Origin: a virus
Lineage: Duplodnaviria; Heunggongvirae; Uroviricota; Caudoviricetes
Direction: 5' to 3' (one strand)
Virus record (IMG/VR): IMGVR_UViG_2563366888_000002
Span: 1 to 17,312 of that record
DNA: 17,312 bases
This document shows, one piece after another, positions 2,648-17,312 of this stretch. Positions within the stretch are counted from its first letter, which is position 1; the number at the start of each line of letters is the position of its first letter. The translations under genes were made by a program, and so were the position numbers. Under the pieces are notes generated by a model. That model was not told the origin of the DNA and did not search any database. It was given only the letters and a program-made list of their open reading frames with translations.

Positions 2648-2693
2648 AGGTTGCTCCGGGCTATGAAATAGAAAAATGAATCCGTTGAAGCCT

Positions 2694-2785: not shown

Positions 2786-3852
2786 TTGATTTCAATTTTG
2801 TCCCACTCCCTGCCTCTGTCATCACGATACTGTGATGCCATGGTGTCCGACTTATGCCCGAGAAGATGTTGAGCAAACTTATCGCTTATCTGCTTCTCAT
2901 AGAGTCTTGCAGACAAACTGCGCAACTCGTGAAAGGTAGGCGGATCCCCTTCGAAGGAAAGACCTGATGCTTTTCGTGCGCGCATAAAATACCTTGATAC
3001 TGTGCCGGATGAAAGCGGTTCGCGACGAGTAGATGCAATTATGGTTTCTCCGCCAAGAATCTCTTTGCATTTATCAAGTGTTTCCTTCATTGATATTCCG
3101 AGAGCATCAACATGCAATGCTGTTGGGATGGCAATTTTTACGCCTGTTTTGCTTTGCTCGACATAAAGATATCCATCTACGATATCAGACCACTTCATTT
3201 CGCATAAATCACCAACTCGTTGCCCGGTAACAACAGCCAGTTCCATTGCAAGTCTGAGCCAACATGGTGATGATTCTGCTGCTTGATAAATTTTCAGGTA
3301 TTCGTCAGCCGTAAGTCTTGATCTCCTTACCTCTGATTTTGCTGCGCGAGTGGCAGCGACAGGGTTTGTTGTTATATGGCCTTCAGCTATTGCCTCTCGG
3401 AATGCATCGCTCAGTGTTGATCTGATTAACTTGGCTGACGCCGCCTTGCCCTCGTCTATGTATCCATTGAGCATTGCCGCAATTTCTTTTGTGGTGATGT
3501 CTTCAAGTGGAGCATCAGGCAGACCCCTCCTTATTGCTTTAATTTTGCTCATGTAATTTATGAGTGTCTTCTGCTTGATTCCTCTGCTGGCCAGGATTTT
3601 TTCGTAGCGATCAAGCCATGAATGTAACGTAACGGAATTATCACTGTTGATTCTCGCTGTCAGAGGCTTGTGTTTGTGTCCTGAAAATAACTCAATGTTG
3701 GCCTGTATAGCTTCAGTGATTGCGATTCGCCTGTCTCGGCCTAATCCAAACTCTTTACCCGTCCTTGGGTCCCTGTAGCAGTAATATCCATTGTTTCTTA
3801 TATAAAGGTTAGGGGGTAAATCCCGGCGCTCATGACTTCGCCTTCTTCCCAT
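2782..3852 (-). CDS. int: Lambda-type integrase (tyrosine recombinase)
   Basis: 356-aa ORF. Translation recognised as lambda Int essentially end to end (MGRRRSHERRDLPPNLYIRNNGYY...HLLGHKSDTMASQYRDDRGREWDKIEIK). Confidence 0.95.
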   Translation of the reverse strand: MGRRRSHERRDLPPNLYIRNNGYYCYRDPRTGKEFGLGRDRRIAITEAIQANIELFSGHKHKPLTARINSDNSVTLHSWLDRYEKILASRGIKQKTLINYMSKIKAIRRGLPDAPLEDITTKEIAAMLNGYIDEGKAASAKLIRSTLSDAFREAIAEGHITTNPVAATRAAKSEVRRSRLTADEYLKIYQAAESSPCWLRLAMELAVVTGQRVGDLCEMKWSDIVDGYLYVEQSKTGVKIAIPTALHVDALGISMKETLDKCKEILGGETIIASTRREPLSSGTVSRYFMRARKASGLSFEGDPPTFHELRSLSARLYEKQISDKFAQHLLGHKSDTMASQYRDDRGREWDKIEIK

Positions 3853-4048
3853 TTCTGATCCTCTTCAAAAGGCTACCTGTTACTGGTCGATTTAAGTCAA
3901 CCTTTACCGCTGATTCGTGGAACAGATATTCTCTTCCATCCTTAACCGGAGGAGGGAATATCCTGCATTCGCGCACCCATCGACGAATTGTTTCAAGGCT
4001 TCTTGGGCGTCGCTGGCGAGCGTTCCACTCCTGAAGTGTCAAGTACAT
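3830..4048 (-). CDS. xis: Excisionase Xis
   Basis: 72-aa ORF (MYLTLQEWNARQRRPRSLETIRRWVRE...) recognised as lambda Xis. Overlaps the int start as in lambda. GGAG 8 nt upstream of ATG. Confidence 0.95.
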   Translation of the reverse strand: MYLTLQEWNARQRRPRSLETIRRWVRECRIFPPPVKDGREYLFHESAVKVDLNRPVTGSLLKRIRNGKKAKS

Positions 4049-4071
4049 CGCAAAGTCTCCGCAATTACACG

Positions 4072-4096
4072 CAAGAAAAAACCGCCATCAGGCGGC
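4072..4096 (-). terminator. Putative intrinsic terminator-like hairpin (CCGCC-ATCA-GGCGG followed by a U7 tract on the minus-strand RNA)
   Basis: GC stem at 4082-4086/4091-4095 with A-run 4075-4081 on the plus strand (U-run on the leftward transcript). Located about 25 nt upstream of the xis start; function unverified. Confidence 0.35.
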
Positions 4097-4292
4097 TTGG
4101 TGTTCTTTCAGTTCTTCAATTCGAATATTGGTTACGTCTGCATGTGCTATCTGCGCCCACAGCATCCAGTGGTTATAGCAGTCGCTGATGTTCTCGGCTT
4201 CGATAACTCTGTTGAATGGTTCTCCATTCCATTCACCTGTAACTCGGAAGTGCATTTATCATCGCCATAAAACAAAACTCGCCGTAGCGAGT

Positions 4293-4324
4293 TCAGATAA
4301 AAGAAAACCCGCACTCGGCGGGTT
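4293..4324 (-). terminator. Putative intrinsic terminator on the leftward transcript
   Basis: 7-bp stem AACCCGC/GCGGGTT (4306-4312/4318-4324) with 5-nt loop, followed on the minus strand by UUCUUUUAU. Sits where I judge the sequence to diverge from lambda. Confidence 0.4.
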
Positions 4325-4603
4325 CGCATTCGTTCAAATTGCGTTTACTTCTTGGCGTTCTGTTCATCCATATCGATATACCATGGGTTGCTTCCCTTGG
4401 GCATGTTTAACGACTGCTCGCGATAGTATCTGATGCGCTCCATGAAATACTCGCGTGAGTGCTCAGGTTGCTCTCATGATACCTGCTCAGTGATAACAGG
4501 TATGTTAAGGCGCTCTCTGTACTCCATGCCTGATGCTGCAAGGTCAACGTTTACCTTGTTCTGTTTTTCTTTCGATTTCTCGGCGATGTTATGCCTGACA
4601 TTG

Positions 4604-4888
4604 TCAACCCGCCTCCTTCTGAACATAACGGTTATAAATCAGTCCCTGAGGGCCATAAGGAAGCGGGATGTGCAACTCCTCTGGTTCAGAAACTATCCAT
4701 TCCCCGGCCATCTCCGCTGGAGAGGTAATGATAAGTTGTTTGCTAATAAAAGGACCACTCCTCTCAACAACAAGCTTACCATCTTCATTAATAAAAGCTT
4801 GGATGTCAGGTGTGCTTCCACACTTGGTGATGCAGCGTTTGAACATTTTGTGTCCCCCCATTTTATGGACGGGGTAATTATAACACAT
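4604..4888 (-). CDS. Hypothetical protein (94 aa; possibly about 80 aa from an internal ATG preceded by a G-rich SD-like run)
   Basis: ORF from track; occupies the ea8.5 position but is not recognisably Ea8.5. No SD before the first ATG; GGGGGG 7 nt before the third Met codon. The antisense plus-strand ORF 4433..4891 looks low-complexity. Confidence 0.45.
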   Translation of the reverse strand: MCYNYPVHKMGGHKMFKRCITKCGSTPDIQAFINEDGKLVVERSGPFISKQLIITSPAEMAGEWIVSEPEELHIPLPYGPQGLIYNRYVQKEAG

Positions 4889-4972
4889 TGAAATATAGTA
4901 ATATTTGACGTAGATTTCTTTTGATCTATAAGCGATTTTTTAATGCTTTTAAGTTATAAATACTTGTTTTCA

Positions 4973-5548
4973 TCACCCATCTTGCTGCGGTGCTACTATT
5001 GAAAAGTACTCACACCCTTTAGCCCAAATAGTTTTGATAGTTGTCCAACTGACTGGAACCTTGATTTCGATTCTTCCGCTGCCGTCACAAGTTTCGCAAT
5101 CATCATCACCAAAGCATTCCGGGCAGCTTATAAACGTAGTTTCTGAAAATTCACCGGATAGCACACCCTTAGCGCCGTTCTCAGCGGTTAGTTTCTTCGG
5201 CACTATAACCCAACCATCCGGAGTTACCGGAGAATTGCCATTTATATCGAAGTTTGGCTCTGCGTCCTGAACCAGGAGGATGTAACCATTCTTGGCAGTA
5301 TCAAGTTCTAACGCCTCGGTGACGGTACCGAAATAGCGATTACCTAAATCCGCATCACAAGTGCTTACATCAATGGAAACCTCCATGCCTTCGATTAATT
5401 CTGGCAAGTTGTAAGTTTGGCTTACAGGTTCTGCTCCCAGTGATGCCAGTGCAATTCGTGCCAGTTCCATTTGTTCGCCACGAGTAAGCCCGTTTTCAAG
5501 CGGATTTTTAATGAACAATTCAATACGTTCTTTGGTAATAGTGGTCAT
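4973..5548 (-). CDS. Hypothetical protein with C-terminal zinc-ribbon (CPEC...CETCDGSG, DnaJ-like CxxCxGxG motif)
   Basis: 191-aa ORF. AAGGA 7 nt upstream of ATG. Only 10 nt downstream of the preceding gene's stop (operon-like packing). Cys-pair motifs read directly from the translation. Confidence 0.6.
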   Translation of the reverse strand: MTTITKERIELFIKNPLENGLTRGEQMELARIALASLGAEPVSQTYNLPELIEGMEVSIDVSTCDADLGNRYFGTVTEALELDTAKNGYILLVQDAEPNFDINGNSPVTPDGWVIVPKKLTAENGAKGVLSGEFSETTFISCPECFGDDDCETCDGSGRIEIKVPVSWTTIKTIWAKGCEYFSIVAPQQDG

Positions 5549-5558
5549 TTGTTAGTCC

Positions 5559-6314
5559 TTAAACTGCTAGTTGCAATTGCATTTCAAAGCGGTCGCGTTG
5601 TTCACAATACGCAAGAGAACCAGGGCTATTGTGTGCCTCAATCCGTTCTACCATTAATGCTGCGCGTGTCTCTTTACTTGCAGGTGCATAAGCCCCAGAC
5701 CAGGCTTTATCAATACCGATGTTTCGAGCGACGTTCGTACTATCTGCGCTGGCTAAGGGTAATTTTGTGAATATCAGCGGATTTAACATGCGCAATCCAT
5801 GTAGTTTCGTAACCAGCTGACCATGCCCATCAACAATGTGACGAATCAGGTCTTTCATTCTGGCTACCGCAAGAGTTGGGCGCTTTACGTCATAGTCGCC
5901 ACAACTACCGATAGCCACTCGCGGAAACTCATTGCACAAATGAATAAATCGCTCGTCACTTTCATTCATGTGCCACACTGGAACGCCAGCTAGTTTTCCG
6001 TGAGGCCACTCATTCAGAAGCGCATCATTTTCCTCCTCTCCGCCATCAATAACATCCGGGATAATGGCAAAATCGAATCTTGGGTGATTCTTCCAGCGAG
6101 CAACAAACTCGTAGTAATCGCTCCAGTCGATTTTGTTTTTGCCAGCTGCTTTCCAGGCGGTGAATGCACCGTTGTCCAGCGCGAACGACTGACAGTATTC
6201 AGCCGCGAGATTGATCTGGCCTGAATGCGCAAAACTGATAAACGCATGTCGCCCTTTCCATGCTCTCATTGCGCACGTATCAGGAGTAATAGGCCCACCG
6301 TGGTAGTGAATCAT
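5559..6314 (-). CDS. TGT-fold protein; candidate DpdA-like 7-deazaguanine DNA transglycosylase (251 aa from the SD-supported ATG)
   Basis: Start chosen at 6314: AAGGAG 6 nt upstream, and ATG overlaps the Ea22-like stop (TGAGATG). The track ORF extends to 6356 but overlaps the upstream gene. Motifs align to tRNA-guanine transglycosylase by eye: FALDNGAF ~ TDSGGFQ, IIPDVID ~ MIFDEC, ASADSTNVARNIG ~ FDCVMPTRNARNG. No C-terminal zinc-binding CxCxxC...H subdomain. Confidence 0.55.
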   Translation of the reverse strand: MIHYHGGPITPDTCAMRAWKGRHAFISFAHSGQINLAAEYCQSFALDNGAFTAWKAAGKNKIDWSDYYEFVARWKNHPRFDFAIIPDVIDGGEEENDALLNEWPHGKLAGVPVWHMNESDERFIHLCNEFPRVAIGSCGDYDVKRPTLAVARMKDLIRHIVDGHGQLVTKLHGLRMLNPLIFTKLPLASADSTNVARNIGIDKAWSGAYAPASKETRAALMVERIEAHNSPGSLAYCEQRDRFEMQLQLAV

Positions 6315-6315
6315 C

Positions 6316-6723
6316 TCACTCTCCTTTGATGCGAATGCCAGTAGCGCGGATTGCATCGATGACTTCAGAAACTTTGTATGCCATTACCGTTTGGTAATCA
6401 TCGTGAAAATCTGTTCGATGAAGCATGCTGCTACGTTCCGGGAGCAGTATTTCCCGCGCTTCCAGTTCTGCAATGCGCTTTTTTGCTGCTTCCAGTTCAT
6501 CCAGTAATTCCAGCACGGTAGCCGGATTAGCCTTGGCAACAAAATCCCGGACTGGCTTACAATCAATCTCCGCAATGGGTTGATACGATGTGTAGCCATG
6601 CTGTCTTGTATAACTACCGTGACGAATAACGAAAAAATCACCATTTATTTTTTTAGCCTGCCACTTATCTTCACCGGCTTTCTCTGCCGCTTCACGCAGT
6701 GCCTGAGAGTTAATTTCGCTCAC
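6316..6723 (-). CDS. Ea22/Ead-family protein (chimeric: lambda-like N-terminus and last residues, divergent middle)
   Basis: 135-aa ORF. N-terminus MSEINSQALREAAEKA... and C-terminal ...GIRIKGE are characteristic of the Ea22 family. Shorter than lambda Ea22 (about 182 aa). Confidence 0.7.
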   Translation of the reverse strand: MSEINSQALREAAEKAGEDKWQAKKINGDFFVIRHGSYTRQHGYTSYQPIAEIDCKPVRDFVAKANPATVLELLDELEAAKKRIAELEAREILLPERSSMLHRTDFHDDYQTVMAYKVSEVIDAIRATGIRIKGE

Positions 6724-6941
6724 GTCGAACCTCTCTGTTTACTGATAAGCTCCAGATCTTGCTGGCAACTGGCACAAGTCCGACAACCCTGAACGGCCAG
6801 TCGTCTTCGTTCATCTATCGGATCGCCACACTCACAACAATGAGTGGCAGATATAGCCTGGTGGTTCAGGCGGCGCATTTTTATTGCTGTGTTGCGCTGT
6901 AATTCTTCAATTTCTGATGCTGAATCAATTATGTCTGCCAT
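6720..6941 (-). CDS. TraR/DksA-family C4 zinc-finger protein (lambda orf73-like)
   Basis: 73-aa ORF with CCECGDPIDERRR...CRTCASC (two Cys pairs, DksA/TraR pattern). Overlaps the Ea22-like start by 4 nt. Confidence 0.8.
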   Translation of the reverse strand: MADIIDSASEIEELQRNTAIKMRRLNHQAISATHCCECGDPIDERRRLAVQGCRTCASCQQDLELISKQRGST

Positions 6942-7039
6942 CTTTCATTAATCCCTGAATTGTTGGTTAATACGCTTGAGGGTGAATGCGAATAATAAAA
7001 AAGGAGCCTGTAGCTCCCTGATGATTTTGCTTTTCATGT

Positions 7040-7321
7040 TCACCGTTCCTTAAAGACGCCGTTCAACATGCCGATCGCCAGGCTTAAATGAGTCGGTGTG
7101 AATCCCATCAGCGTTACCGTTTCGCGGTGCTTCTTTAGTACGCTACGGCAAATGTCATCGACGTTTTTATCCGGAAACTGCTGTCTGGCTTTTTTGATTT
7201 CAGAATTAGCCTGACGGGCAATGCTGCGAAGGGCGTTTTCTTGCTGAGGTGTCATTGAACAAGCCCCATGTCGGCAAGCATAAGCACACAGAATATGAAG
7301 CCCGCTGCCAGAAAAATGCAT
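7040..7321 (-). CDS. Small early-left hypothetical protein (likely translated from the internal ATG at 7255, giving 71 aa)
   Basis: ORF from track. The internal ATG at 7255 overlaps (ATGA) the stop of an upstream 27-codon hydrophobic mini-ORF (7252..7335), suggesting translational coupling. Lambda-like by memory. Confidence 0.5.
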   Translation of the reverse strand: MHFSGSGLHILCAYACRHGACSMTPQQENALRSIARQANSEIKKARQQFPDKNVDDICRSVLKKHRETVTLMGFTPTHLSLAIGMLNGVFKER

Positions 7322-7331
7322 TCAGTGGTTG

Positions 7332-7523
7332 TCATACCTGGTCTCTCTCATCTGCTTCTGCTTTCGCCACCATCATTTCCAGCTTTTGTGAAAGGGATGC
7401 GGCTAACGTATGAAATTCTTCGTCTGTTTCTACTGATATTGGCACAAACCTGACTCCAATTTGAGCGAGGCTATGTGCCATCTCGATACTCGTTCTTAAC
7501 TCAACGGGAGATGCTTTGTGCAT
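7332..7523 (-). CDS. Lambda orf63-like small protein
   Basis: 63-aa ORF. Overlaps the next upstream ORF by 28 nt, exactly as the lambda orf63/orf60a pair does. Confidence 0.55.
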   Translation of the reverse strand: MHKASPVELRTSIEMAHSLAQIGVRFVPISVETDEEFHTLAASLSQKLEMMVAKAEADERDQV

Positions 7524-7678
7524 ACAGCTCCCCGTTTATTATTTATCTCCTCAGCCAGCCGCTGTGCTTTCAGGGGATTTCTGATAACAGAAAGGCCGGG
7601 AAATACCCAGCCTCGCTTTGTAATGGAGTAGACGAAAGTGATCGCGCCCACCCGGATATTATCGTGAGGATGCGTCAT
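7496..7678 (-). CDS. Lambda orf60a-like small protein (60 aa from the ATG that overlaps the exo stop)
   Basis: Track ORF 7496..7684. The start at 7678 gives 60 aa and a 4-nt ATGA overlap with the exo stop, matching lambda organisation. Confidence 0.5.
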
Positions 7679-8355
7679 CGCCATTGCTCCCCAAATACAA
7701 AACCAATTTCAGCCAGTGCCTCGTCCATTTTTTCGATGAACTCCGGCACCATCTCGTCAAAACTCGCCATGTACTTTTCATCCCGCTCAACCACGACATA
7801 ATGCAGGCCTTCACGCTTCATACGCGGGTCATAGTTGGCAAAGTACCAGGCATCTTTTCGCGTCACCCACATGCTGTACTGCACCTGGGCCATGTAAGCC
7901 GACTTTATGGCCTCGAAACCACCGAGCCGGAACTTCATGAAATCCCGGGAGGTAAACGGGCATTTCAGCTCAAGGCCATTGCCGTCACTGCATAAACCAT
8001 CGGGAGAGCAGGCGGTACGCATACTTTCGTCGCGATAGATGATCGGGGATTCAGTAACATTCACGCCGGAAGTGAATTCAAACAGAGTTCTGGCGTCGTT
8101 CTCGTACTGTTTTCCCCATGCCAGCGCCTTAGCATTAACTTCCGGAGCCACACCGGTGCAAACCTCAGCCAGCAGGGTGTGGAAGTAGGACATTTTCATG
8201 TCAGGCCACTTTTTTCCGGAGCGGGGTTTTGCTATCACATTGTGAACTTCTGAAGCGGTGATGACGCCGAGCCGTAATTTGTGCCACGCATCATCCCCCT
8301 GTTCGACAGCTCTCACGTCGATTCCGGTACGCTGCAGGATAATGTCCGGTGTCAT
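7675..8355 (-). CDS. exo: Exonuclease (Red-alpha)
   Basis: 226-aa ORF recognised as lambda Exo ([54 protein letters not shown]...). Confidence 0.95.
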
Positions 8356-9137
8356 GCAGCCACCTTCTGCTCAGTGGCTTTCTGTTTCAGGAATCCAAGA
8401 GCTTTCACTGCTTCGGCCTGTGTCAGTTCTGACGATGCGCGAATGTCGCGGCGAAATATCTGGGAACAGAGCGGCAATAAGTCGTCATCCCATGTTTTAT
8501 CCAGGGCAATCAGCAGAGTGTTAATCTCCTGCATGGTTTCATCGTTAACCGGAGTGATGTCGCGTTCCGGCTGACGTTCTGCAGTGTATGCGGTATTTTC
8601 GACAATGCGCTCGGCTTCATCCTTGTCATAGATACCCGCAAATCCGAAGGCCAGACGGGCACACTGAATCATGGCTTTATGCCGTAACATCCGTTTGGGA
8701 TGCGACTGCCACGGCCCCGTAATTTCTCTGCCTTCGCGGGTTTTGAATGGTTCGCGGCGGCATTCATCCATCCACTCGGTAACGCAGATCGGATGATTAC
8801 GGTCCTTGCGGTAAATCCGGCATGTACAGGATTCATTGTCCTGCTCAAAGTCCATGCCATCAAACTGCTGGTTTTCATTGATGATGCGGGACCAGCCATC
8901 AACGCCCACCACCGGAACGATGCCATTCTGCTTATCAGGAAAGGTGTAAATTTCTTTCGTCCACGGATTAAGGCCGTACTGGTTGGCAACGATCAGTAAT
9001 GCGATGAACTGCGCATCGCTGGCATCACCTTTAAATGCCGTCTGGCGAAGAGTGGTGATCAGTTCCTGTGGGTCGACAGAATCCATGCCGACACGTTCAG
9101 CCAGCTTCCCAGCCAGCGTTGCGAGTGCTGTACTCAT
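8352..9137 (-). CDS. bet: Recombination protein Bet (Red-beta single-strand annealing protein)
   Basis: 261-aa ORF recognised as lambda Bet ([59 protein letters not shown]...). Confidence 0.95.
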
Positions 9138-9142
9138 CCGTT

Positions 9143-9439
9143 TTATACCTCTGAATCAATATCAACCTGGTGGTGAGCAATGGTTTCAACCATGTACCGG
9201 ATGTGTTCTGCCATGCGCTCCTGAAACTCAACATCGTCATCAAACGCACGGGTAATGGCTTTTTTGCTGGCCCCGTGGCGTTGCAAATGATCGATGCATA
9301 GCGATTCAAACAGGTGCTGGGGCAGGCCTTTTTCCATGTCGTCTGCCAGTTCTGCCTCTTTCTCTTCACGGGCGATCTGCTGGTAGTGACGCGCCCAGCT
9401 CTGAGCCTCAAGACGATCCTGAATGTAATAAGCGTTCAT
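9143..9439 (-). CDS. gam: Gam, RecBCD inhibitor (98-aa short form; the longer N-terminal extension is not in frame here)
   Basis: Translation [21 protein letters not shown]...[10 protein letters not shown] recognised as lambda GamS. In-frame stop at 9494-9496 upstream; the lambda-like extension peptide [15 protein letters not shown] is encoded in the +1 frame. Confidence 0.9.
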
Positions 9440-9514
9440 GGCTGAACTCCTGAAAATGGCTGTGAAAATATCGCCCGCGAAATGCCAGGCTGATTAGGAA
9501 AACAGGAAAGGGGA

Positions 9515-9721
9515 TTAGCGATTCAGGCCGTTACCGCGTCCGTCGAGAAAAACTTCCACGAGCAAATCACGGGTATAAGTGCGCTCGATGCCGCGATGCA
9601 GATAAAGCCGTCCGCGTAAATTAGCTGATGCAGTCCAGGTACCATCTTTGTGTTTGACCAGCATTCCTGGCATGACCGCACCTCGATTAACGGTCTGCGT
9701 TCCGTAATGTTGATGAACCAT
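9515..9721 (-). CDS. Small hypothetical protein in the kil position (68 aa from the SD-supported ATG); frame stays open upstream to a TTG at 9925
   Basis: AGGAG 5 nt before the ATG at 9721. The 136-codon track ORF starts on TTG with no SD. Non-lambda sequence. Confidence 0.45.
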
Positions 9722-9943
9722 AAAAACTCCTGCCCGTAAGCTGGGCTGCTGAACATATAGAGACTTCTGCGCGTATTCAGGCGGTGGATGGCCGCCGGTT
9801 GTCATAACTAAGTCGCCTCGTTGAAGCGACTGAGGTATGAAGTGTTGAGTTGATTTCAGCTGGTCACACCGACGTTCACGCGTCCGCTTCACCCCTCGCA
9901 CTCCCCGAAGCCTGCTGAAATTCAAACTGCGGATCTAAGCGGT

Positions 9944-10072
9944 CATCGCAACGGTGAAACAGGTGGTTACCGTATCGTTGTGTCGTTGCGATGAATTTAT
10001 TTAAAACTATAGTTGTTTTATCGTCAACAACAAAAGTTGTTTTGTCGGTTGTTTTAAATATAACTGGTTGTA
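9944..10072 (-). promoter_or_regulatory. Candidate OL/pL region and early leftward leader: 10-bp inverted repeat with 30-bp spacer plus GTTGTT/AACAAC operator-like half-sites
   Basis: CATCGCAACG (9944-9953) pairs with CGTTGCGATG (9984-9993). Half-sites AGTTGTTTT (10011-10019), CAACAAC (10025-10031), AGTTGTTTT (10035-10043), GGTTGTTTT (10048-10056), CTGGTTGTA (10064-10072). The same half-site recurs in the cI-cro intergenic region. No promoter hexamers confidently placed. Confidence 0.4.
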
Positions 10073-10161
10073 TTTAGGATGGATTTATTTTGTGACTTGC
10101 ATCGCATAGCGATAACTGAAGTGAGGTGTGGTGGTTTTTTGGACGGTATGAGTTATGAGGG

Positions 10162-10193
10162 GGAGGAAAAGAAAACCCGGCGCGGTTGCCGGG
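10162..10193 (-). terminator. Intrinsic terminator downstream of the lipoprotein gene (end of the cI-side operon)
   Basis: Stem CCCGGC/GCCGGG (10176-10181/10188-10193) with 6-nt loop, followed on the minus-strand RNA by UUUUCUUUUCC. 9 nt after the lipoprotein stop. Confidence 0.6.
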
Positions 10194-10201
10194 TATGATT
10201 A

Positions 10202-10582
10202 TCAGTCAGCCCAACCTGATTTCGAGTTTATTTGGGTTTCTGACATTGTGTATTTCTTAATCGTGTCATCGTTAAAAAGAATAGTAAGTTCTTTTTTCGT
10301 ACCGTTCGTTCCATTATGGAATAATCCATAGAATGGAATAAAAGTGGTGCCATTAACTTTTACTTTTGCAAAGGCGTACTTCCAGATCTCGTTTCCACTG
10401 TCAGTATATGAAACAGCATCAGGAGAACCAAAGTAAGATTTAACCTCATTCTTGGTTGTTTTACCTTCCTGAAGTTTAGACTGGACACTAATTTCAGTTT
10501 CATTTTTGAGTTGCTGGTTGCCTGAAGAAGCACACCCAGCCAATACAGATGCCATCATGGCAGCGATTAGGATTTTTCTCAT
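10202..10582 (-). CDS. BamE/SmpA-OmlA-like small lipoprotein; moron in the rex position downstream of cI
   Basis: 126-aa ORF. Signal peptide with lipobox LAGC. The EGKTTKNEVKSYFGSPD...WKY pattern resembles the BamE fold motif. Same strand as cI and followed by a terminator. Confidence 0.7.
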   Translation of the reverse strand: MRKILIAAMMASVLAGCASSGNQQLKNETEISVQSKLQEGKTTKNEVKSYFGSPDAVSYTDSGNEIWKYAFAKVKVNGTTFIPFYGLFHNGTNGTKKELTILFNDDTIKKYTMSETQINSKSGWAD

Positions 10583-10811
10583 TTTATGTTTCCATTCATT
10601 ATAATCAGAAACATCTTAACATAATGATTCGAAATAAAAACCGCTACGAGATAGGGGGACATTTTGCTGACAGTAGCAACAAATCTCAGCTAACAACGAG
10701 AATATTTACTGAAATATGCAAACAGATTTGGCGTTCTTATAGAGAATTTAGTGCAATATCTAATCCGAGTGGTATAAACCTTAACCTTCGCTCCCTTAAG
10801 TCGTAGATAAA

Positions 10812-11501
10812 TTAACCATGCTTCCTGTACGTCTGCGGCATGCTTCCAATGACCTTACCGAATATGAACACCCGGTTCATCTCGTCTTTCTCGATCGGGT
10901 CCCACGGCGAGTAGCTCTTGTTATCAGAGATAACCAGCAGCTTATCCTTCATCATTTGAAGACGTTTTACATGGGCAGTGTCGTCGTACAGAAACGCATA
11001 GATGCCATCACCGTCGAAAGATTTAACAGTGATATCAACGAACAGCAGGTCACCTGGTTCGATCGTCCCTGACATGCTGTCACCTCGCACGTTAATGATG
11101 CGGATATTTTCCGCCTTCCTGCCATCGAACATGTGACGAGCATCGTCAAACGAGTACTCAACCGAGCGTAGAACTTCTACAAACTCACGGTTGATTACAC
11201 CTGGCCCGGCACTGACTTCTATATCAAGAACGTCAATTTTGAAGTATTTGGAATGGCTGACAGTTGATTGTATTGGTTGCACTGTACTGTCTGACATATT
11301 TCCAACGCCAGAAGATAACCATTCTGCGCGCACACCCAAAGCGTTCGCGATCTCCACGATTTTAGTTGTTTGGTTAGCTTTCCCTGTTTCGATTTTCTGA
11401 ATAGCAGCCTGGCTAACCCCGACCAAATCCCCAAGCGCCTTTTGTGTAAGGCCTCGCGCTAATCTGGCTTCTTTAAGTCTTTCTGAGAGTGTTGTTTTCA
11501 T
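10812..11501 (-). CDS. cI: CI-type prophage repressor (N-terminal HTH_XRE, C-terminal S24 LexA-like peptidase domain)
   Basis: 229-aa ORF. HTH segment LTQKALGDLVGVSQAAIQKIETGK. Candidate Ala-Gly autocleavage site (VSAGPG). Ser/Lys dyad motifs GDSM and HVKRL. No SD before the ATG, consistent with a leaderless pRM-type transcript. Not lambda immunity. Confidence 0.85.
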   Translation of the reverse strand: MKTTLSERLKEARLARGLTQKALGDLVGVSQAAIQKIETGKANQTTKIVEIANALGVRAEWLSSGVGNMSDSTVQPIQSTVSHSKYFKIDVLDIEVSAGPGVINREFVEVLRSVEYSFDDARHMFDGRKAENIRIINVRGDSMSGTIEPGDLLFVDITVKSFDGDGIYAFLYDDTAHVKRLQMMKDKLLVISDNKSYSPWDPIEKDEMNRVFIFGKVIGSMPQTYRKHG

Positions 11502-11605
11502 AGATCAAATGTACAACCAAGGTTTTATTTCATCAAACGAAAATGGTTGTTGACTAAAAACAACCATAGTTTTAATCTTGATTCGGATTAACCACGGAGG
11601 TTGTT
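11502..11605. promoter_or_regulatory. Divergent promoter/operator region (OR; pR-like promoter for cro, leaderless pRM-like start for cI)
   Basis: Rightward TTGACT (11550-11555), 17-bp spacer, TAATCT (11573-11578), then GGAGG before the cro ATG. Inverted repeat ATGGTTGTT (11542-11550) / AACAACCAT (11559-11567) overlaps the -35. Confidence 0.6.
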
Positions 11606-11836
11606 ATGAACCCAGCAATCAAAACAGCGATCAATATCGTTGGTTCACAAAAGAAACTAGGCGATGCCTGCGAAGTTTCACAGCAGGCCGTCTATAAGTG
11701 GCTTCACAACAAAGCAAAGGTATCCCCTGAACATGTCGGCAGCATTGTTACGGCTACTGGTGGAGTTGTGAAGGCATACCAGATTCGCCCGGATCTTCCG
11801 AAGTTGTTTCCACACACCGAAAAGAACGCAGCTTAA
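11606..11836 (+). CDS. Cro-like HTH regulator (YdaS-like)
   Basis: 76-aa ORF divergent from cI with a strong SD. HTH-like segment KKLGDACEVSQQAVYKWLHN. Family call from memory. Confidence 0.7.
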   Translation: MNPAIKTAINIVGSQKKLGDACEVSQQAVYKWLHNKAKVSPEHVGSIVTATGGVVKAYQIRPDLPKLFPHTEKNAA

Positions 11837-11905
11837 ATTTCCATTTCACGCTCTTTAACAATAAGCAATCAACTTAACAGTCAATTCAAACTAAAGGAGT
11901 CAATT

Positions 11906-12445
11906 ATGCAACCACTTACATACCAACAGACTAGCGGATTTATTCCGACTGCGGTGATAAATCGTTCTCAAACAAAACAAGCTCCAGGCCACGAAAAAAT
12001 CCGTGATGCCGTCCGCGCCTGGTCGGCTGTAGATAATCAGGATGTCGTTGCCGCACTCATTGTGAATGAGTATCGGGAGCAGGGCGACGGCACCATCGAT
12101 TTCCCTGATGATGTCAGCCGTGCACGCCAGAAGCTGTTCCGCTTCCTCGATAACAAATTCGATTCTGAAAAATACCGAAATAACGTGCGTGAACTGACCC
12201 CGGCAATTCTGGCGGTACTACCGCTGGAATATCGCGGTTACCTGGTTGAGCAGGATAGCTTCATGACTCGGTTGGCTGAAATGGAAAAGGAACTCAGTGA
12301 GGCAAAACAGGCTGTCATTCTCAACGCACCACGCCACCAGAAACTGAAGGAAATGAGTGAAGGTATTGTGTCGATGTTTCGTGTGGACCCGGATCTGGCT
12401 GGTCCATTAATGGCGATGGTGACCACCATGCTGGGGGCAATATGA
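11906..12445 (+). CDS. CII-position regulatory protein (YdaT/CII-like), 179 aa
   Basis: AAGGAG SD. Located between cro-like and O with an ATGA overlap at the 3' end. Assignment is by position, not recognised sequence. Confidence 0.45.
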   Translation: MQPLTYQQTSGFIPTAVINRSQTKQAPGHEKIRDAVRAWSAVDNQDVVAALIVNEYREQGDGTIDFPDDVSRARQKLFRFLDNKFDSEKYRNNVRELTPAILAVLPLEYRGYLVEQDSFMTRLAEMEKELSEAKQAVILNAPRHQKLKEMSEGIVSMFRVDPDLAGPLMAMVTTMLGAI

Positions 12446-12531
12446 CAGGTTCAGAAATGGCGAAAGTCGGTCTGCGGGAACAGAACCGACTTTCAGGTGC
12501 AAATCGTAACACACTCATTGCGGGAGGAATT

Positions 12532-13461
12532 ATGGCAAACACTGCTGAGATATTCAATTTTCCAGTGCCGGATGCGGCACAAAAGGAGCCGCGCGTGGCA
12601 GATCTCGATGATGGTTATACGCGCATTGCAAATGAGTTGCTGGAAGCTGTGATGCTGGCCGGATTAACACAGCACCAGCTTCTGGTCTTCCTGGCTGTCA
12701 TGCGCAAAACATATGGCTTTAATAAAAAACTGGATTGGGTGAGCAACGAGCAACTTTCCGAGTTGACCGGGATATTGCCGCACAAGTGTTCTGCTGCAAA
12801 AAGCGTTCTGGTAAAGCGTGGGATTCTTATTCAGAGCGGGCGGAATATCGGCATTAATAATGTGGTCAGTGAATGGTCAACATTACCCGAATCAGGTAAG
12901 AAAAATAAAGTTTACCTGAAAGAGGTAAATTTACCTGAATCAGGTAAGAAAAGTTTACCCAAATCAGGTAAAGGCGTTTACCCGAATCAGGTAAACACAA
13001 AAGACAAACTAACAAAAGACAATATAAAACCTTTTTCGTCCGAGAATTCTGGCGAATCCTCTGACCAACCAGAAAACGATCTTCCTGTGGAGAAACCAGA
13101 TGCTGCAATTCAGAGCGGCAGCAGGTGGGGGACAGCAGAAGACCTGACCGCCGCAGAGTGGATGTTTGACATGGTGAAGACCATCGCGCCATCAGCCAGA
13201 AAACCGAATTTTGCAGGGTGGGCTAACGATATCCGCCTGATGCGTGAACGTGACGGACGTAACCACCGCGACATGTGCGTGCTGTTCCGCTGGGCATGCC
13301 AGGACAACTTCTGGTCCGGTAACGTGCTAAGTCCGGCCAAACTCCGCGACAAGTGGACCCAACTCGAAATCAACCGTAACAAGCAACAGGCTGGCGTGAC
13401 AGCCGGAAAATCAAAACTCGACCTGACAAACACTGACTGGATTTATGGGGTGGATTTATGA
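12532..13461 (+). CDS. O: Replication initiator O (non-lambda N-terminal iteron-binding domain, lambda-like C-terminal P-interaction domain)
   Basis: Conserved O motif ADLDDGY...LLEA...RKTYGFNK...SNEQLSELTG and lambda-like C-terminus (...WIYGVDL). Start set at 12532 (GGGAGG 5 nt upstream; aligns with the lambda O N-terminus). The track ORF begins at 12442. Confidence 0.85.
   Translation: MANTAEIFNFPVPDAAQKEPRVADLDDGYTRIANELLEAVMLAGLTQHQLLVFLAVMRKTYGFNKKLDWVSNEQLSELTGILPHKCSAAKSVLVKRGILIQSGRNIGINNVVSEWSTLPESGKKNKVYLKEVNLPESGKKSLPKSGKGVYPNQVNTKDKLTKDNIKPFSSENSGESSDQPENDLPVEKPDAAIQSGSRWGTAEDLTAAEWMFDMVKTIAPSARKPNFAGWANDIRLMRERDGRNHRDMCVLFRWACQDNFWSGNVLSPAKLRDKWTQLEINRNKQQAGVTAGKSKLDLTNTDWIYGVDL
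12883..12995. repeat. Replication origin iterons inside O (five about 18-bp direct repeats), followed by an A/T-rich segment to about 13040
   Basis: TTACCCGAATCAGGTAAG (12883), TTTACCTGAAAGAGGTAAA (12911), TTACCTGAATCAGGTAAG (12931), TTACCCAAATCAGGTAAA (12954), TTACCCGAATCAGGTAAA (12978), then ACAAAAGACAAACTAACAAAAGACAATATAAAA. Classic lambdoid ori architecture. Confidence 0.8.
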
Positions 13462-14159
13462 AAAACATCGCCGCACAGATGGTTAACTTTGACCGTGAGC
13501 AGATGCGCCGGATCGCCAACAACATGCCGGAACAGTACGACGAAAAGCCGCAGGTACAGCAGGTAGCGCGGATCATCAACGGTGTGTTCAGCCAGTTACT
13601 GGCAACTTTCCCGGCGAGCCTGGCTAACCGGGACCAGAACGAACTGAACGAAATCCGCCGCCAGTGGGTTCTGGCTTTCCGGGAAAACGGGATCACCACA
13701 ATGGAACAGGTTAACGCAGGAATGCGCGTAGCCCGTCGGCAGAATCGACCATTCCTGCCATCACCCGGGCAGTTTGTCGCCTGGTGCCGGGAAGAAGCAT
13801 CCGTTACCGCCGGACTGCCAAACGCCAGCGAGCTGGTTGATATGGTTTACGAGTATTGCCGGAAGCGTGGCCTGTATCCGGACGCAGAGTCTTATCCATG
13901 GAAATCAAACGCGCACTACTGGTTGGTTACCAACCTGTACCAGAACATGCGGGCCAATGCGCTGACTGACGCGGAATTACGGCGTAAAGCTGCCGATGAG
14001 CTGACCTGTATGACCGCGCGAATTAACCGTGGTGAGGCGATACCTGAACCAGTAAAACAACTTCCTGTCATGGGCGGTAGGCCTCTAAATCGTGCACAGG
14101 CTCTGGCGAAGATCGCAGAAATCAAAGCGAAGTTCGGACTGAAAGGAGCAACTGTATGA
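13458..14159 (+). CDS. P: Replication protein P (DnaB helicase loader)
   Basis: 233-aa ORF recognised as lambda P almost residue for residue (MKNIAAQMVNFDREQMRRIANNMPEQYDEKPQVQQVA...). Confidence 0.95.
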   Translation: MKNIAAQMVNFDREQMRRIANNMPEQYDEKPQVQQVARIINGVFSQLLATFPASLANRDQNELNEIRRQWVLAFRENGITTMEQVNAGMRVARRQNRPFLPSPGQFVAWCREEASVTAGLPNASELVDMVYEYCRKRGLYPDAESYPWKSNAHYWLVTNLYQNMRANALTDAELRRKAADELTCMTARINRGEAIPEPVKQLPVMGGRPLNRAQALAKIAEIKAKFGLKGATV

Positions 14160-14329
14160 CGGGCAAAGAGGCAATTATTCATTATCTGGAGACGCACAAG
14201 AGCTTCTGTGCGCCGGACGTTGCTGCGACAACAGGTGTGACATTAACCAGCATAAATCAGGCTGCGGCAAAAATGGCGCGGGCAGGAATCCTGGTCATTG
14301 ATGGTAAGGTCTGGCGAACGTTTGTTTAA
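14156..14329 (+). pseudogene. ren: ren N-terminal fragment (57 codons; lambda-like for about 50 residues, then divergent and terminated)
   Basis: ATG overlaps the P stop. Translation MTGKEAIIHYLETHKSFCAPDVAATTGVTLTSINQAAAKMARAGILVIDGKVWRTFV-stop matches lambda Ren (96 aa) only in its N-terminal part. Not in the ORF track because under 60 aa. Confidence 0.6.
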
Positions 14330-14475
14330 CGGTTAGCTACTCAGGATGATAGGGCGGGGCAAGTGAGTATGAAGCGGATTTTCAGGAATGCCATCAGAGT
14401 TTGGAAATAAAGTGGGTTTTCTAGTGGCAAGAGACTTGATAATATTTAGTTCTTTAAATCCAAGGAGATAGGGTT

Positions 14476-14970
14476 ATGAGAAAATTTATTATAGCCTTTG
14501 TCATAAGTGCCTCGTTTACTGCAAATGCTGGTGTAGAGAAGTTAGGGTCGTGGATAACAAAGTCTGAGATAAATAAAATGACTGACCAGACTGACTTTGT
14601 GGCTCTTAATTTATCACCAGATTCATATAACAAAGCAGGTACTGATCGTGCAACTTCACTGGTGTTGCGTTGTAGTGATAACAAAACAGATGCCTATTTA
14701 TCATTCAATGATTATATGGGTTCGGACAACCCAAGAATTACAGTGCGGTTAGATGGCGGAAAGCCGGTCAAGAGTGCTTGGGGAGGTGGGGAAGGCGGTG
14801 ATTCTGCATTTGCTCCACAACCAATACAATTTATAAAGACCTTGGCTAAGCATAAAAAAGCTATTTTTGGGTTTGAACCTTATGGATCAACTATGCAAGT
14901 AGTTGAGTTTGACTTGTCTGAGATTGATAAGGTTGTGGAAAAAATTTCACAGTCTTGCAATTGGAAATGA
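14476..14970 (+). CDS. Secreted hypothetical protein (signal peptide, two Cys), low-GC moron
   Basis: 164-aa ORF. N-terminal MRKFIIAFVISASFTANA signal-peptide pattern. GGAG-type SD. Visibly AT-rich relative to neighbours. Followed by a terminator. Confidence 0.65.
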   Translation: MRKFIIAFVISASFTANAGVEKLGSWITKSEINKMTDQTDFVALNLSPDSYNKAGTDRATSLVLRCSDNKTDAYLSFNDYMGSDNPRITVRLDGGKPVKSAWGGGEGGDSAFAPQPIQFIKTLAKHKKAIFGFEPYGSTMQVVEFDLSEIDKVVEKISQSCNWK

Positions 14971-14987
14971 CAAAAAAATTTCATATG

Positions 14988-15012
14988 AACCCAGTTGGCG
15001 CTGGGTTTTTTA
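14988..15012 (+). terminator. Intrinsic terminator after the secreted-protein gene
   Basis: Stem AACCCAG/CTGGGTT (14988-14994/15001-15007) with loop TTGGCG, followed by TTTTTAT. Confidence 0.65.
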
Positions 15013-15607
15013 TTTCAGTAGCCAATAATGCATTCAAAATCTCTTACTTGAGAAACGGCCTATTTGAGATTTCAGTCGTGGCAGGATGATCAGTTGATTC
15101 GAGTATTGACGCATTTGCGTTCGGAGCGATTACAGTAGATTGTAAATAATAATGAGAAACACATAGCCACATAGCCACCCCGTGGTATTGAAACCATATA
15201 ATGTTGGATTTGAAAACAGATCTTTTCCCATGTATTAATAACTACATCCCCGCGAGTGATTCAAAAAGGAGGGCCCAATTTTGTCCGAGTTTTTGTATTC
15301 CCCCGCATGCCGCTGCGGAGCACTACATCTGAGTGTCTGACTAGGGGATAAAATTAGACTGGATAGTGAGAAGAAAGTGGCGCGCTAGGCTGTGCCGAGT
15401 GCTACCAGTACACCTTGGGGGTGTGCAGCTTTCGCCGAGACTGTAGTGGGTATCGGTTAATGCACGAAAAACCGAGAGGTCAGACAACCAATTTGCCGTA
15501 GGATTGTTTCCGGTGCGATACCGGTCTACTAACTGAAAGCAATGCGAAAAAGCATAAACTCGGTCCTTCAGTCGCCCTACACACTATTTACTAAGAAGGG
15601 CTGAAGC

Positions 15608-15808
15608 ATGGATACAATTATTACATGGATGGGAGATCGTCTGTTGGGGGGGACACAAAAATCCGATCTGCAGCAGATGGCGATCACTGGATTAACTTCC
15701 GCGATTTGTTCAACAATTTTGTACACTGAAAAATTAAAACATGGTGAGCCTATTAACCCAAACGAAGAAGAAAAACTTTATAGGCTTTGGTATGAAGGAA
15801 ACGCTTGA
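15608..15808 (+). CDS. Hypothetical small protein (66 aa)
   Basis: ORF from track. AAGGG 9 nt upstream of ATG. No recognisable motif. Confidence 0.4.
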   Translation: MDTIITWMGDRLLGGTQKSDLQQMAITGLTSAICSTILYTEKLKHGEPINPNEEEKLYRLWYEGNA

Positions 15809-15916
15809 AAGAATAAAGCACAATTAAAACCTTTGATTTGCGATAATCAACTTGCCATAATTAAGTAATCGGAGCCTGAACAACTCCGGTGACTTCTGCG
15901 CTAAACGGGGACGTTT

Positions 15917-16018
15917 ATGCGCACATACAATCCAAACTATCTTCTCCTTTCACAGATGCAGAAATGCACCTGCAATTCTTTGCATCTAGCGTTTGACCTC
16001 TGTGGAGGTGAAGCGTGA
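15917..16018 (+). CDS. ylcH: YlcH-like small protein (33 aa)
   Basis: ATG at 15917; translation [33 protein letters not shown]-stop. Stop overlaps the GTG start of the ybcN-like gene, as in DLP12. Recognised from memory. Confidence 0.5.
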
Positions 16019-16470
16019 ACCTCCCACAAGATGGCATCAAATTGCATCGCGGTAACTTCACCGCTATCGGTCAGCAGATCCAGCCTTATCTGGAAGACGG
16101 CAAATGCTTTCGCATGGTGCTTAAACCGTGGCGAGAGAGACGCAGTCTTTCCCAGAATGCACTCAGCCACATGTGGTACAGCGAAATCAGTGAATACCTC
16201 ATCAGCAGGGGGAAATCGTTCGCTACCGCAGCATGGGTAAAAGATGCTCTCAAACACACATACCTCGGTTATGAAACCAAGGACCTGGTTGATGTCGTAA
16301 CCGGCGAAATCACTACTATCCAGTCGTTACGCCATACCTCCGATCTTGATACCGGAGAGATGTATGTCTTCCTGTGTAAGGTTGAAGCCTGGGCGATGAA
16401 TATTGGCTGCCACCTGACTATTCCGCAGAGCTGCGAGTTCCAGCTGCTGCGCGACAAGCAGGAGGCGTAA
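16015..16470 (+). CDS. ybcN: YbcN-like protein (NinB-family; DLP12 YbcN is described as a DNA base-flipping protein)
   Basis: 151-aa ORF with GTG start. Translation recognised as near-identical to K-12 DLP12 YbcN ([19 protein letters not shown]...). Contains the [12 protein letters not shown] motif. Confidence 0.85.
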
Positions 16471-16640
16471 TGGCTACACCGCTTATTCGTGTCATGAACG
16501 GACACATCTACAAAGTACCAAATCGTCGTAAGCGTAAACCTGAGCTGAAGCCATCCGAAATACCAACACTGCTCGGATATACCGCTAGCCTGGTTGATAA
16601 AAAATGGTTGCGACTGGCAGCAAGGAGGAATCATGGCTGA
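16470..16640 (+). CDS. ninE: NinE
   Basis: 56-aa ORF ([56 protein letters not shown]) recognised as NinE. Start overlaps the ybcN stop. Under 60 aa, so absent from the track. Confidence 0.8.
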   Translation: MATPLIRVMNGHIYKVPNRRKRKPELKPSEIPTLLGYTASLVDKKWLRLAARRNHG

Positions 16641-16923
16641 TTTGAGAAAAGCAGCGCGTGGTCGGGAATGCCAGGTAAGAATCCCTGGCGTATGTAATGG
16701 CAACCCTGAAACGTCTGTACTGGCACATATCCGGCTGACTGGATTGTGCGGCACCGGTACGAAACCGCCAGACCTGATTGCCACCATTGCATGTTCTGCC
16801 TGCCACGACGAAATCGACCGCCGCACGCATTTTGTTGACGCTGGATATGCAAAAGAATGCGCGCTGGAAGGTATGGCGAGAACGCAGGTTATCTGGCTGA
16901 AAGAGGGGGTAATTAAGGCGTGA
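16633..16923 (+). CDS. ybcO: YbcO-like DUF1364 protein (Cys-rich, putative nuclease)
   Basis: 96 aa from MADLRK...; recognised as YbcO-like. Overlaps ninE stop. Multiple Cys (CQVRIPGVC...CSACHDE). The track ORF starts at an upstream ATG (16594). Confidence 0.8.
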
Positions 16924-17253
16924 ATACTTACCACATCACACTACCCTGGCCGCCGAGCAATAACCGCTACTACCGCCATAATCGAGGGCGCACGCACATC
17001 AGCGCAGAAGGGCAGGCATACCGCGATAACGTCGCCCGAATCATTAAAGGCTCAATGCTGGATATCGGTCTGGCTATGCCTGTGAAAATCCGCATTGAGT
17101 GCCACATGCCGGATCGCCGTCGCCGTGACCTGGATAATCTACAAAAAGCCTCTTTTGACGCACTCACCAAAGCAGGTTTCTGGCTGGATGATGCTCAGGT
17201 CGTTGATTACCGCGTTGTGAAGATGCCTGTTACCAAAGGTGGGAGGCTGGAAC
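16920..17253 (+). pseudogene. rusA: rusA (Holliday-junction resolvase), 3'-truncated by IS insertion after about 111 codons
   Basis: GTG start preceded by GAGGGGG. Translation [26 protein letters not shown]...[14 protein letters not shown] matches RusA, then reads into the IS inverted repeat instead of the native C-terminus. Confidence 0.8.
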
Positions 17254-17312
17254 TGAACCGCCCCGGGTTTCCTGGAGAGTGTTTTATCTGTGAACTCAGG
17301 CTGCCAGATCAT
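17254..17312 (-). mobile_element. IS3-family insertion sequence end (same element type as at 1..93, opposite orientation, truncated by window edge)
   Basis: Starts TGAACCGCCCCGGG...; 17254..17312 is the exact reverse complement of 37..95. Interrupts rusA. Confidence 0.7.

Follow-up and report, generated by a model that had tools for sequence, protein, structure and literature searches.

Proposed left and right operators of 434-type recognition in a lambda-like Escherichia coli prophage

Which sequence does the repressor of a lambda-like prophage recognize when its immunity region departs from that of lambda? The question is raised by IMG/VR virus record IMGVR_UViG_2563366888_000002, positions 1 to 17,312 (the whole stretch of 17,312 nucleotides analyzed, hereafter the window), in which a gap of exactly 104 bp (11502-11605) separates the divergent genes cI and cro. 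An original prediction, made from the sequence alone, took repeats in this gap and on the far side of cI for the operators OR and OL of a non-lambda immunity. The window is an E. coli lambdoid prophage, and its immunity segment (9900-12000, 2.1 kb) shares 99.9% of its bases with phage PhiR26_1 and is found at 100% identity in several E. coli chromosomes. The repeats very probably are the left and right operators of this prophage, recognized in the manner of the 434 repressor, and would make it heteroimmune to lambda. This reading draws on sequence, statistics, homology, cross-genus conservation, and co-variation, from which we infer binding, order of occupancy, promoter activation, start sites, and immunity phenotypes.

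Dyads on both sides of cI

Three genes frame the problem:

10812-11501, minus strand: cI repressor gene, 229 aa (open reading frame and translation, Pfam, solved-structure match)
11606-11836, plus strand: cro-type lytic repressor gene, 76 aa, YdaS / P22-Cro family
11906-12445, next after cro: YdaT-type cII analogue gene (PF06254, E 4.3e-30)

The amino-terminal domain of cI matches the Pfam helix-turn-helix (HTH) family HTH_3 (E 5.4e-13, residues 9-62), and its nearest solved relative is the 434 repressor (phmmer E 4.5e-9 over 64 residues; 1PER/2OR1 chains). The predicted recognition helix is S30-QAAIQKIE. In the alignment, the 434 residues Gln28, Gln29, Ser30, and Gln33 become Q, A, A, and K, leaving Gln28 alone retained. 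The carboxyl-terminal domain is a Peptidase_S24 domain of the self-cleaving type (E 1.2e-18; UmuD was matched as well), in which Ala98-Gly99, Ser142 (GDSM), and Lys179 (VKRL) align with lambda Ala111-Gly112, Ser149, and Lys192. Identity to lambda cI is 23% overall (BLASTP E 0.003), and a lambda-type amino-terminal domain is not supported, the Phage_CI_repr match to cI reaching 16.7 bits against a 22-bit cut-off. The cro product matches Pfam YdaS_toxin (PF15943, E 6.6e-17), P22_Cro (E 7e-5), and the Cro structures 3BD1 and 5W8Y in the PDB; its predicted recognition helix is SQQAVYKW. The layout is that of a lambdoid CI-type system: cI and cro diverge, repeated sites lie over pR and pRM, and a second set lies at pL. 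Judged by its sequence, cI is a lambdoid CI-type repressor, with predicted SOS cleavage at Ala98-Gly99.

The repeats share the pentamer GTTGT or its complement ACAAC. Left of cI, GTTGT occurs at 10012, 10036, 10048, and 10067, and ACAAC at 10027. Counted per 100 bp across the 17.3-kb window, the two pentamers together number six at ~9977-10076 (OL; Poisson P 7e-6), four at ~11513-11612 (OR; Poisson P 2e-4), and at most two elsewhere. The original prediction had proposed a half-site common to the two regions flanking cI, with repeated units to its left; indeed, these regions are the pentamer's two densest spots in the window, and GTTGT/ACAAC units lie at 10003-10071. OR and OL each coincide with an outward-facing TTGAC(T/G) promoter, pR and pL respectively. 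The gap also contains the inverted repeat that first drew attention, ATGGTTGTT / AACAACCAT, at 11543-11551 and 11559-11567. The repeat is real and perfect, with 9-bp arms and a 7-bp spacer, although it begins one base to the right of the start first given, 11542. It flanks TTGACT (11550-11555) on both sides, and a perfect repeat of at least 9 bp arises in 187 of 20,000 shuffles of the 104-bp gap (0.9%).

The whole 17.3 kb was then scanned for the 14-bp dyad ACAACNNNNGTTGT (ACAAC-N4-GTTGT), allowing one mismatch. Five matches were found (10003; 10027, perfect; 11513; 11560; and 11591), all of them in OL or OR, where 0.57 would be expected; a count of five was not attained in any of 200 shuffles. 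With a two-mismatch site at 11537, the series 11513, 11537, 11560 is complete, its steps being 24 and 23 bp, and from this series the arms of the inverted repeat are seen to be the right half of one site, OR2, and the left half of the next, OR1. The surroundings of pR and pL are nearly alike (GTTGTTGAC-N-A-N-AAACAAC-Y-ATAGTTTTAA), OR1 and OL1 are one sequence type, and OL1 and OL2 are separated by a step of 24 bp. The proposed sites are as follows:

11513-11526: OR3, ACAACCAAGGTTTT; one mismatch; centre 18.5 bp upstream of the cI ATG
11537-11550: OR2, ACGAAAATGGTTGT; two mismatches, left half weak, right half perfect; centre -42.5 from the cI ATG
11560-11573: OR1, ACAACCATAGTTTT; one mismatch; fills the pR spacer, its last base being the first base of the pR -10
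11591-11604: candidate OR4, ACCACGGAGGTTGT; one mismatch; 31 bp from OR1; the cro Shine-Dalgarno GGAG forms its central four bases
10003-10016: OL1, AAAACTATAGTTGT (pL strand ACAACTATAGTTTT); one mismatch; overlaps the pL spacer and -10
10027-10040: OL2, ACAACAAAAGTTGT; no mismatch, the only perfect dyad of the window; first base overlaps the pL -35
10058-10071: candidate OL3, ATATAACTGGTTGT; three mismatches, only the right half good; 31 bp from OL2
10047-10055: orphan half-site, GGTTGTTTT, between OL2 and the OL3 candidate

Are these sites kept where the repressor is kept? An alignment of seven Cro proteins retrieved 80 loci from one-genome-per-species bacterial contigs. The cI helix [ST]QA[ASN]IQK[IL] occurs in 28 distinct loci, namely the window and 27 relatives (phage loci included), from Klebsiella, Kosakonia, Enterobacter, Erwinia, Pantoea, Brenneria, Providencia, Morganella, Xenorhabdus, Photorhabdus, and other genera. 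All 28 have the three right-hand dyads at equal positions, with variable central four bases and steps of 24-25 and 23-24 bp. Bases A1, A3, A4, C5, G10, T11, and T14 are invariant in OR3 and OR1, and C2 is present in 27 loci for OR3 and 25 for OR1; OR1 reads ACAAC-N4-GTTTT across the set, and OR2 keeps G10, T11, and T14 in every locus. To the left of cI, 26 of the 28 carry an OL1-type site (AAAAC-N4-GTTGT), accompanied in 23 by an OL2-type site exactly 24 bp away; OL is 0.8-3.3 kb distant from OR, depending on which cargo separates cI from pL. The dyad was matched 137 times in 211 kb (76 in OR, ~50 in OL, ~11 elsewhere), with ~6 expected by chance. OL2 is unchanged in phage PhiR47_2 even though its flanking bases differ. 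A motif search in related prophages had been suggested along with the original prediction, and it returned the same dyads, spacing, and promoter geometry in 28 loci.

These relatives also bear on what constitutes one operator. The 25-bp repeat ATGGTTGTT-N7-AACAACCAT might itself be the site, as one long palindrome, with similar units at OL (GTTGTT-N8-AACAAC). Its perfect 9-bp arms exceed what most shuffles give, an analogous GTTGTT...AACAAC pair does exist at OL, and the outer arm bases are complementary above chance in relatives (mean 2.0 of 3). That complementarity, however, follows from the TATA-like centres of both dyads. Moreover, the arm spacer is 7 bp at OR and 8 bp at OL, and among the loci it is 7 bp in 22 and 8 bp in six, whereas the 5-4-5 gap is fixed: the mean best mismatch is 0.39 for a gap of four, and at least 2.1 for gaps of two, three, five, or six. 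A 434-type HTH dimer spans 14 bp. The long palindrome also leaves OR3 and the perfect dyad OL2 unexplained; because the 14-bp dyad explains both, it is preferred as the unit, and the chance that the repressor reads the longer palindrome is very small. The proposal that OR and OL are operators therefore gains support, but the 25-bp repeat is not an operator itself.

Promoters and the proposed switch

The dyads lie over three promoters, read from the sequence:

11550-11578, plus strand: pR, -35 TTGACT (11550-55), 17-bp spacer, -10 TAATCT (11573-78); predicted start near 11585
11508-11536, minus strand: pRM, -35 TTGATG (11536-31), 17-bp spacer, -10 TACATT (11513-08), six nucleotides to the cI ATG
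9998-10027, minus strand: pL, -35 TTGACG (10027-22), -10 either TAAATA (10003-9998, 18-bp spacer) or TTAAAT (10004-9999, 17-bp spacer); placed by analogy with pR

The pL promoter reads left toward kil, gam, bet, and exo, and lies inside a block that differs between heteroimmune relatives. Equivalents of pR in the 28 loci have a -35 of TTGnnn or TGACnn, a -10 of TAnnnT, and a spacer of 17-18 bp. Equivalents of pRM have TTGnnn at -35 in all 28 loci and TAnnTT at -10 in 27 (TAnnnT in all), with six nucleotides to the ATG in 21. A generic promoter scan of the window called none of pR, pL, or pRM, missing pR because its -10 matches at only three of six positions; the three promoters thus are assigned by position and conservation.

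The original prediction had also remarked that cI has no Shine-Dalgarno sequence, and suggested a leaderless transcript. No Shine-Dalgarno-like purine run occurs in the 15 nucleotides (GTACATTTGATCT) upstream of the cI ATG, and the six-nucleotide distance from the TAnnTT hexamer to the ATG, the same as in lambda, agrees with that idea. The geometry implies that the cI mRNA from pRM would be leaderless, its 5' end being the A of the ATG or an adjacent base.

Counted from this ATG, the operator centres are at -18.5, -42.5, and -65.5. Because these nearly match the centres in lambda, OR2 is placed where lambda cI contacts RNA polymerase at pRM. OR2 directly adjoins two -35 hexamers, those of pRM and pR, and its steps to OR3 and OR1 are 24 and 23 bp. 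OR3 overlaps the pRM spacer and the first base of the pRM -10, and for this reason is the proposed site of cI self-repression.

These positions suggest how the switch could work. A cI dimer, combining a 434-like HTH with a LexA-like self-cleaving domain, would bind the 14-bp ACAAC-N4-GTTGT dyads. Repressor at OR1 and OR2 would shut off pR, while repressor at OR2, centred at -42.5, would stimulate pRM; at a high repressor level, OR3 would be occupied and pRM turned off. OL1 and OL2 would cover pL likewise, and a weak OL3 may lie 31 bp further. Cro, whose helix SQQAVYKW is similar to SQAAIQKI in cI, presumably uses the same sites as cI. DNA damage would lead to RecA-stimulated cleavage at Ala98-Gly99, and so to prophage induction.

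Could the inverted repeat be a hairpin instead of a protein site, acting either as a weak terminator or attenuator for leftward pRE-type transcripts or as a cruciform? A terminator scan does flag 11543-11567 on both strands, where a 9-pair stem with three G-C pairs is followed by a T-rich tail. The stem is AT-rich, however, and it lies upstream of both predicted starts (pR, ~11585; pRM, 11501), so that neither promoter would transcribe it. Terminating pRE transcripts before they reach cI would be self-defeating. Conserved operators, changing in step with the repressor helix, already account for these bases, and a hairpin function is given next to no credence.

A further dyad lies before cro. 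This candidate OR4 spans roughly +6 to +19 of the predicted pR transcript. The element AC(N)AC directly before GGAGG is kept in ~22 of the 28 loci, while the preceding 15 nucleotides vary. In a heteroimmune group (helix SQP[AS]IW[RK]L) this position is taken by a dyad of the group's own type, which in one locus (L047) is the exact reverse complement of its OR3. The site was first taken for mere ribosome-binding-site context, on the example of lambda GGAGGTTGT; this view was dropped on the evidence of the conserved ACNAC half and the group-specific dyad. A fourth operator before cro thus appears probable.

A wider proposal is offered only tentatively, being possible rather than probable. The right operator would have four sites in this repressor family, the fourth dyad (ACNAC-GGAG-GTTGT) lying around the cro Shine-Dalgarno with an uncontacted centre, 31 bp (three helical turns) from OR1; the GGTTGTTTT orphans upstream of pL may form a related extension, dependent on cooperativity in binding; and the recognition code would pair Ala or Pro with C or T at position 2, and perhaps Lys with C5. 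If this is true, repressor or Cro at OR4 would block early pR transcripts or cro expression, which goes beyond three-site logic.

On the left side, OL3 is a weak candidate, and its offset is seen also in the closest relatives (Kosakonia, Klebsiella, Enterobacter). One to three partnerless GGTTGT(T/A)TT half-sites lie right of OL2 in many genera, at unfixed positions (10047-10074 in the window; loci L013-L035). Such orphans could amount to a weak OL3, allow cooperative binding at half-sites, or influence pL as A-tracts. The one at 10047-10055 probably is dispensable here, because PhiR47_2 reads GGTTTTTTT in its place. A matching site 31 bp left of OL1 was considered and rejected, as that position holds a lone GTTGT at 9977, in sequence common to heteroimmune phages.

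The 31-bp, three-turn step from start to start recurs in three places: OL2-OL3 of 434 (L093, 2582-2649); OL2 and the OL3 candidate of the window (10027-10071); and OR1 and the OR4 candidate (11560-11604). This recurrence suggests a second permitted spacing for cooperative binding in this repressor family. Within cI itself, in its immunity-specific part, ACGATTTTAGTTGT at 11356-11369 (codons QTTKIV; ACAACTAAAATCGT on the other strand) departs from the dyad at two positions and is similar to OR2. Either chance or an intragenic operator could explain this match.

Recognition helices and known specificities

A natural exchange links the dyads to the repressors. Phages 4A7, Perceval, and PhiR30_1 have the cI carboxyl-terminal domain, cII, and flanks of the window; their HTH, cro, and repeats (of the GCTATTG/CAATAGC type) are different, in two blocks only:

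11369-11904: right immunity block, containing the HTH-coding part of cI, OR, cro, and the spacer after cro; replaced in a blastn comparison with 4A7, with flanks 87-96% identical
9992-10088 (approximate): left immunity block, containing OL and pL, with sequence common to heteroimmune relatives on either side; compared by eye with 4A7, Perceval, and PhiR30_1

Because only those blocks are swapped, the proposed operators travel with the DNA-binding parts of cI and Cro. Across specificities, the cI helix and the dyad change together:

cI helix SQAAIQK: ACAAC-N4-GTTGT; the window and 27 relatives
cI helix SQPAIQK: ATAAC-N4-GTTAT; HK639, PA28, and several genera
cI helix AQSSVWKL: ATCGC-N4-GCGAT; Xenorhabdus loci
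cI helix AQPTIWRL: ATAGC-N4-GCTAT; 4A7

The Cro helix co-varies in parallel, being SQQAVYKW or SQAAVQKW in one case and SQPAVHKW in the other. Ala and Pro alternate at the cI residue aligned with 434 Gln29, which contacts operator position 2 in the 434 repressor-operator structures. The ATAAC dyads of HK639 occur only at the pL and pR that are annotated independently in its GenBank record. Among the phages compared, no motif of one was found in the operator regions of another, and heteroimmunity is predicted from this lack of cross-matching.

Since cI and Cro lie in one swapped block, co-variation cannot separate them. The dyads might then serve Cro alone, or a different factor from host or phage, with cI binding something else there. 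The differences between the cI and 434 helices nevertheless parallel those between the operators: Gln28 is kept along with A1, and where Pro replaces Ala at the Gln29 position, T2 replaces C2. OL and OR have no second repeated motif in common. To our knowledge, cI and Cro share operators in every lambdoid switch that has been studied. Dyads reserved for Cro or a third factor are, on these grounds, highly improbable.

Several points weigh against taking the dyads for cI operators. The searchable literature yielded no binding, footprint, start-site, or immunity study of this repressor. The -10 hexamers of pR and pL are weak and went uncalled by the generic promoter scan. OR2, OL3, and OR4 each have one poor half-site, and their status comes from position and conservation. 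Lambda likewise has GGAGGTTGT before cro, and part of OR4 could be ribosome-binding-site context. The loci are phylogenetically related, so the conservation counts are not independent events.

How does the 434-type reading of these dyads compare with 434 itself? The repressor amino-terminal domains are homologous, and in both phages the recognition helices of repressor and Cro are similar to each other. The 434 record has 14-bp operators (ACAA-N6-TTGT) 22-23 bp apart, with 31 bp between OL2 and OL3. The same architecture is found here: the outer five bases are conserved, the central four are free, and sites are ~22-24 bp apart. Counted from the pRM start, the centres in 434 lie at -20.5, -43.5, and -65.5. 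The half-sites agree at positions 1-4 (ACAA) but not at position 5, which is always C here and may be G, T, or A in 434. The 434 recognition helix is QQSIEQL, and QAAIQKI retains only the first Gln. OL2 alone fits ACAA-N6-TTGT, whereas OR1, OR2, OR3, and OL1 do not, and the GTTTT half in OR1, OR3, and OL1 breaks the TTGT rule. None of the window's dyads is present in the 434 immunity region. With three contact residues of the four changed and the consensus fitted by OL2 alone, the predicted specificity is not that of 434. There are differences of context as well: cI of the window appears leaderless, but a leader and a ribosome-binding site precede cI in 434; and, unlike in 434, Cro is a member of the YdaS / P22-Cro family and an N gene is absent. 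Since OL2 (ACAACAAAAGTTGT) does fit the 434 consensus, the question of cross-immunity concerns 434 rather than lambda.

In overall plan the switch is like that of lambda. Lambda too has divergent cI and cro genes, three operators centred at -19, -42, and -66 from the pRM start, and a repressor with a self-cleaving S24 carboxyl-terminal domain. Its pRM has TAGATT six nucleotides before the ATG, a leaderless geometry equal to that of the window, and its pL and OL lie beyond a cargo slot, occupied by rexAB in lambda and a lipoprotein gene here. The operators differ, being 17 bp long in lambda (TATCACCGC...; TATCACCGCCAGTGGTA type). No lambda operator was found in OR or OL, where the best matches have five to six mismatches and are no better than random window sites. 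The cro and cII families of lambda are unrelated to the YdaS and YdaT of the window, and a four-site OR is probable only here. Taken with the low identity between the repressors and the 434-like DNA-binding domain of cI, these differences bear out the non-lambda specificity that had been proposed; by operator and repressor sequence, this is not lambda immunity.

HK639 and the Stx1-phage PA28 are the closest named phages of a sister specificity, their cI amino-terminal domains being 49-58% and their Cro proteins 63-66% identical to those of the window. They share 5-4-5 dyads at equal positions, the leaderless geometry, and a YdaT-type cII. In their half-site, T replaces C at position 2 and A replaces G at position 13, and both the cI and Cro helices have Pro for Ala. 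Neither set of sites cross-matches in the other's phage, and HK639 and PA28 have no clear fourth site before cro. The half-site of the window is unlike those of lambda, HK639, and 4A7 and in part unlike that of 434, for which reason the prophage should be heteroimmune to all four. The 933W repressor was considered as the closest studied relative, PA28 Cro being annotated as 933W-like, and was rejected: its helix has S41, K42, and K46, and its sites are of odd length.

The lytic arm resembles that of another group, since the families of Cro and of the gene in the cII position match those of the YdaS/YdaT type (Rac, CP-933P, phi80-like). CP-933P has a YdaS Cro, a YdaT cII, a repressor mRNA shown to be leaderless, four regularly spaced intergenic palindromes, and an OL-like set at pL (PMC8630535, PMC9986795). 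Its repressor, PaaR2, is a non-S24 protein that is not SOS-cleavable, binds 18-bp palindromes with a GTTTAGTAA half-site, and is linked to a toxin-antitoxin system (PMC8630535, PMC9986795). The counterpart here of its fourth palindrome would be the dyad at 11591-604, found in ~22 of 28 loci and overlapping a ribosome-binding site partly common to lambda. New lambdoid phages with unknown specificities are considered routine in the field, and this is a standard lambdoid switch with 434-type recognition that leaves the established picture unchallenged.

Prevalence and neighbouring features

The immunity module is common in E. coli. A 541-bp probe (the HTH-coding part of cI, OR, and cro) finds it in 1,524 of 5,426 complete E. 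coli genomes, at no less than 95% identity in all but two, whereas only six of 50,697 phage records carry the cI amino-terminal domain. No paper describing this specificity was found in the searchable literature. The same immunity region lies in a prophage of E. coli O157 AR-0427 (L094, 10227-14541) together with emrE, ylcJ, ybcK, ybcL, ybcM, and ybcN, the gene set of K-12 DLP12. The module probably is the immunity region that DLP12 of K-12 has lost.

Once the operator is known, superinfection immunity and cross-talk among co-resident lambdoid prophages can be predicted, and pR, pRM, and pL can be annotated in thousands of genomes. The repressor and operator would offer an orthogonal pair for synthetic circuits, and the co-variation of helix and half-site is a ready data set on the evolution of 434-type specificity.

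Several neighbouring observations concern the early transcripts. The pL leader (9860-9998, minus strand), between pL and kil (9515-9925), contains no N-like antiterminator gene. It is conserved even in heteroimmune relatives, and starts with a 9-10 bp stem, CAUCGCAACG...CGUUGCGAUG. The HK639 record has a putL-like antiterminator RNA at the equivalent place. A search of the leader for a put-type RNA gave weak similarity to HK639 putL and a fold no better than shuffles (z = -0.29), and an Rfam scan of the whole window gave no match.

Some 3.4 kb downstream of the ydaT-type gene, the intergenic sequence TTGATTTGCGATAATCAA at 15833-15850 is a perfect box for YdaT, the cII analogue (TTGATT-N6-AATCAA). 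Such a box is expected ~0.001 times per window. A promoter activated by YdaT, comparable to lambda paQ, could lie here.

Finally, the slot between cI and pL (10175-10582, minus strand) is occupied by a BamE/SEN1984-like lipoprotein gene (10202-10582), behind which lies a strong terminator (10175-10194). In relatives the cargo is a GevA/GevT toxin-antitoxin pair, an ASCH-domain gene with a hypothetical gene, or RexAB. The slot looks like a hot spot for accessory and defence genes.

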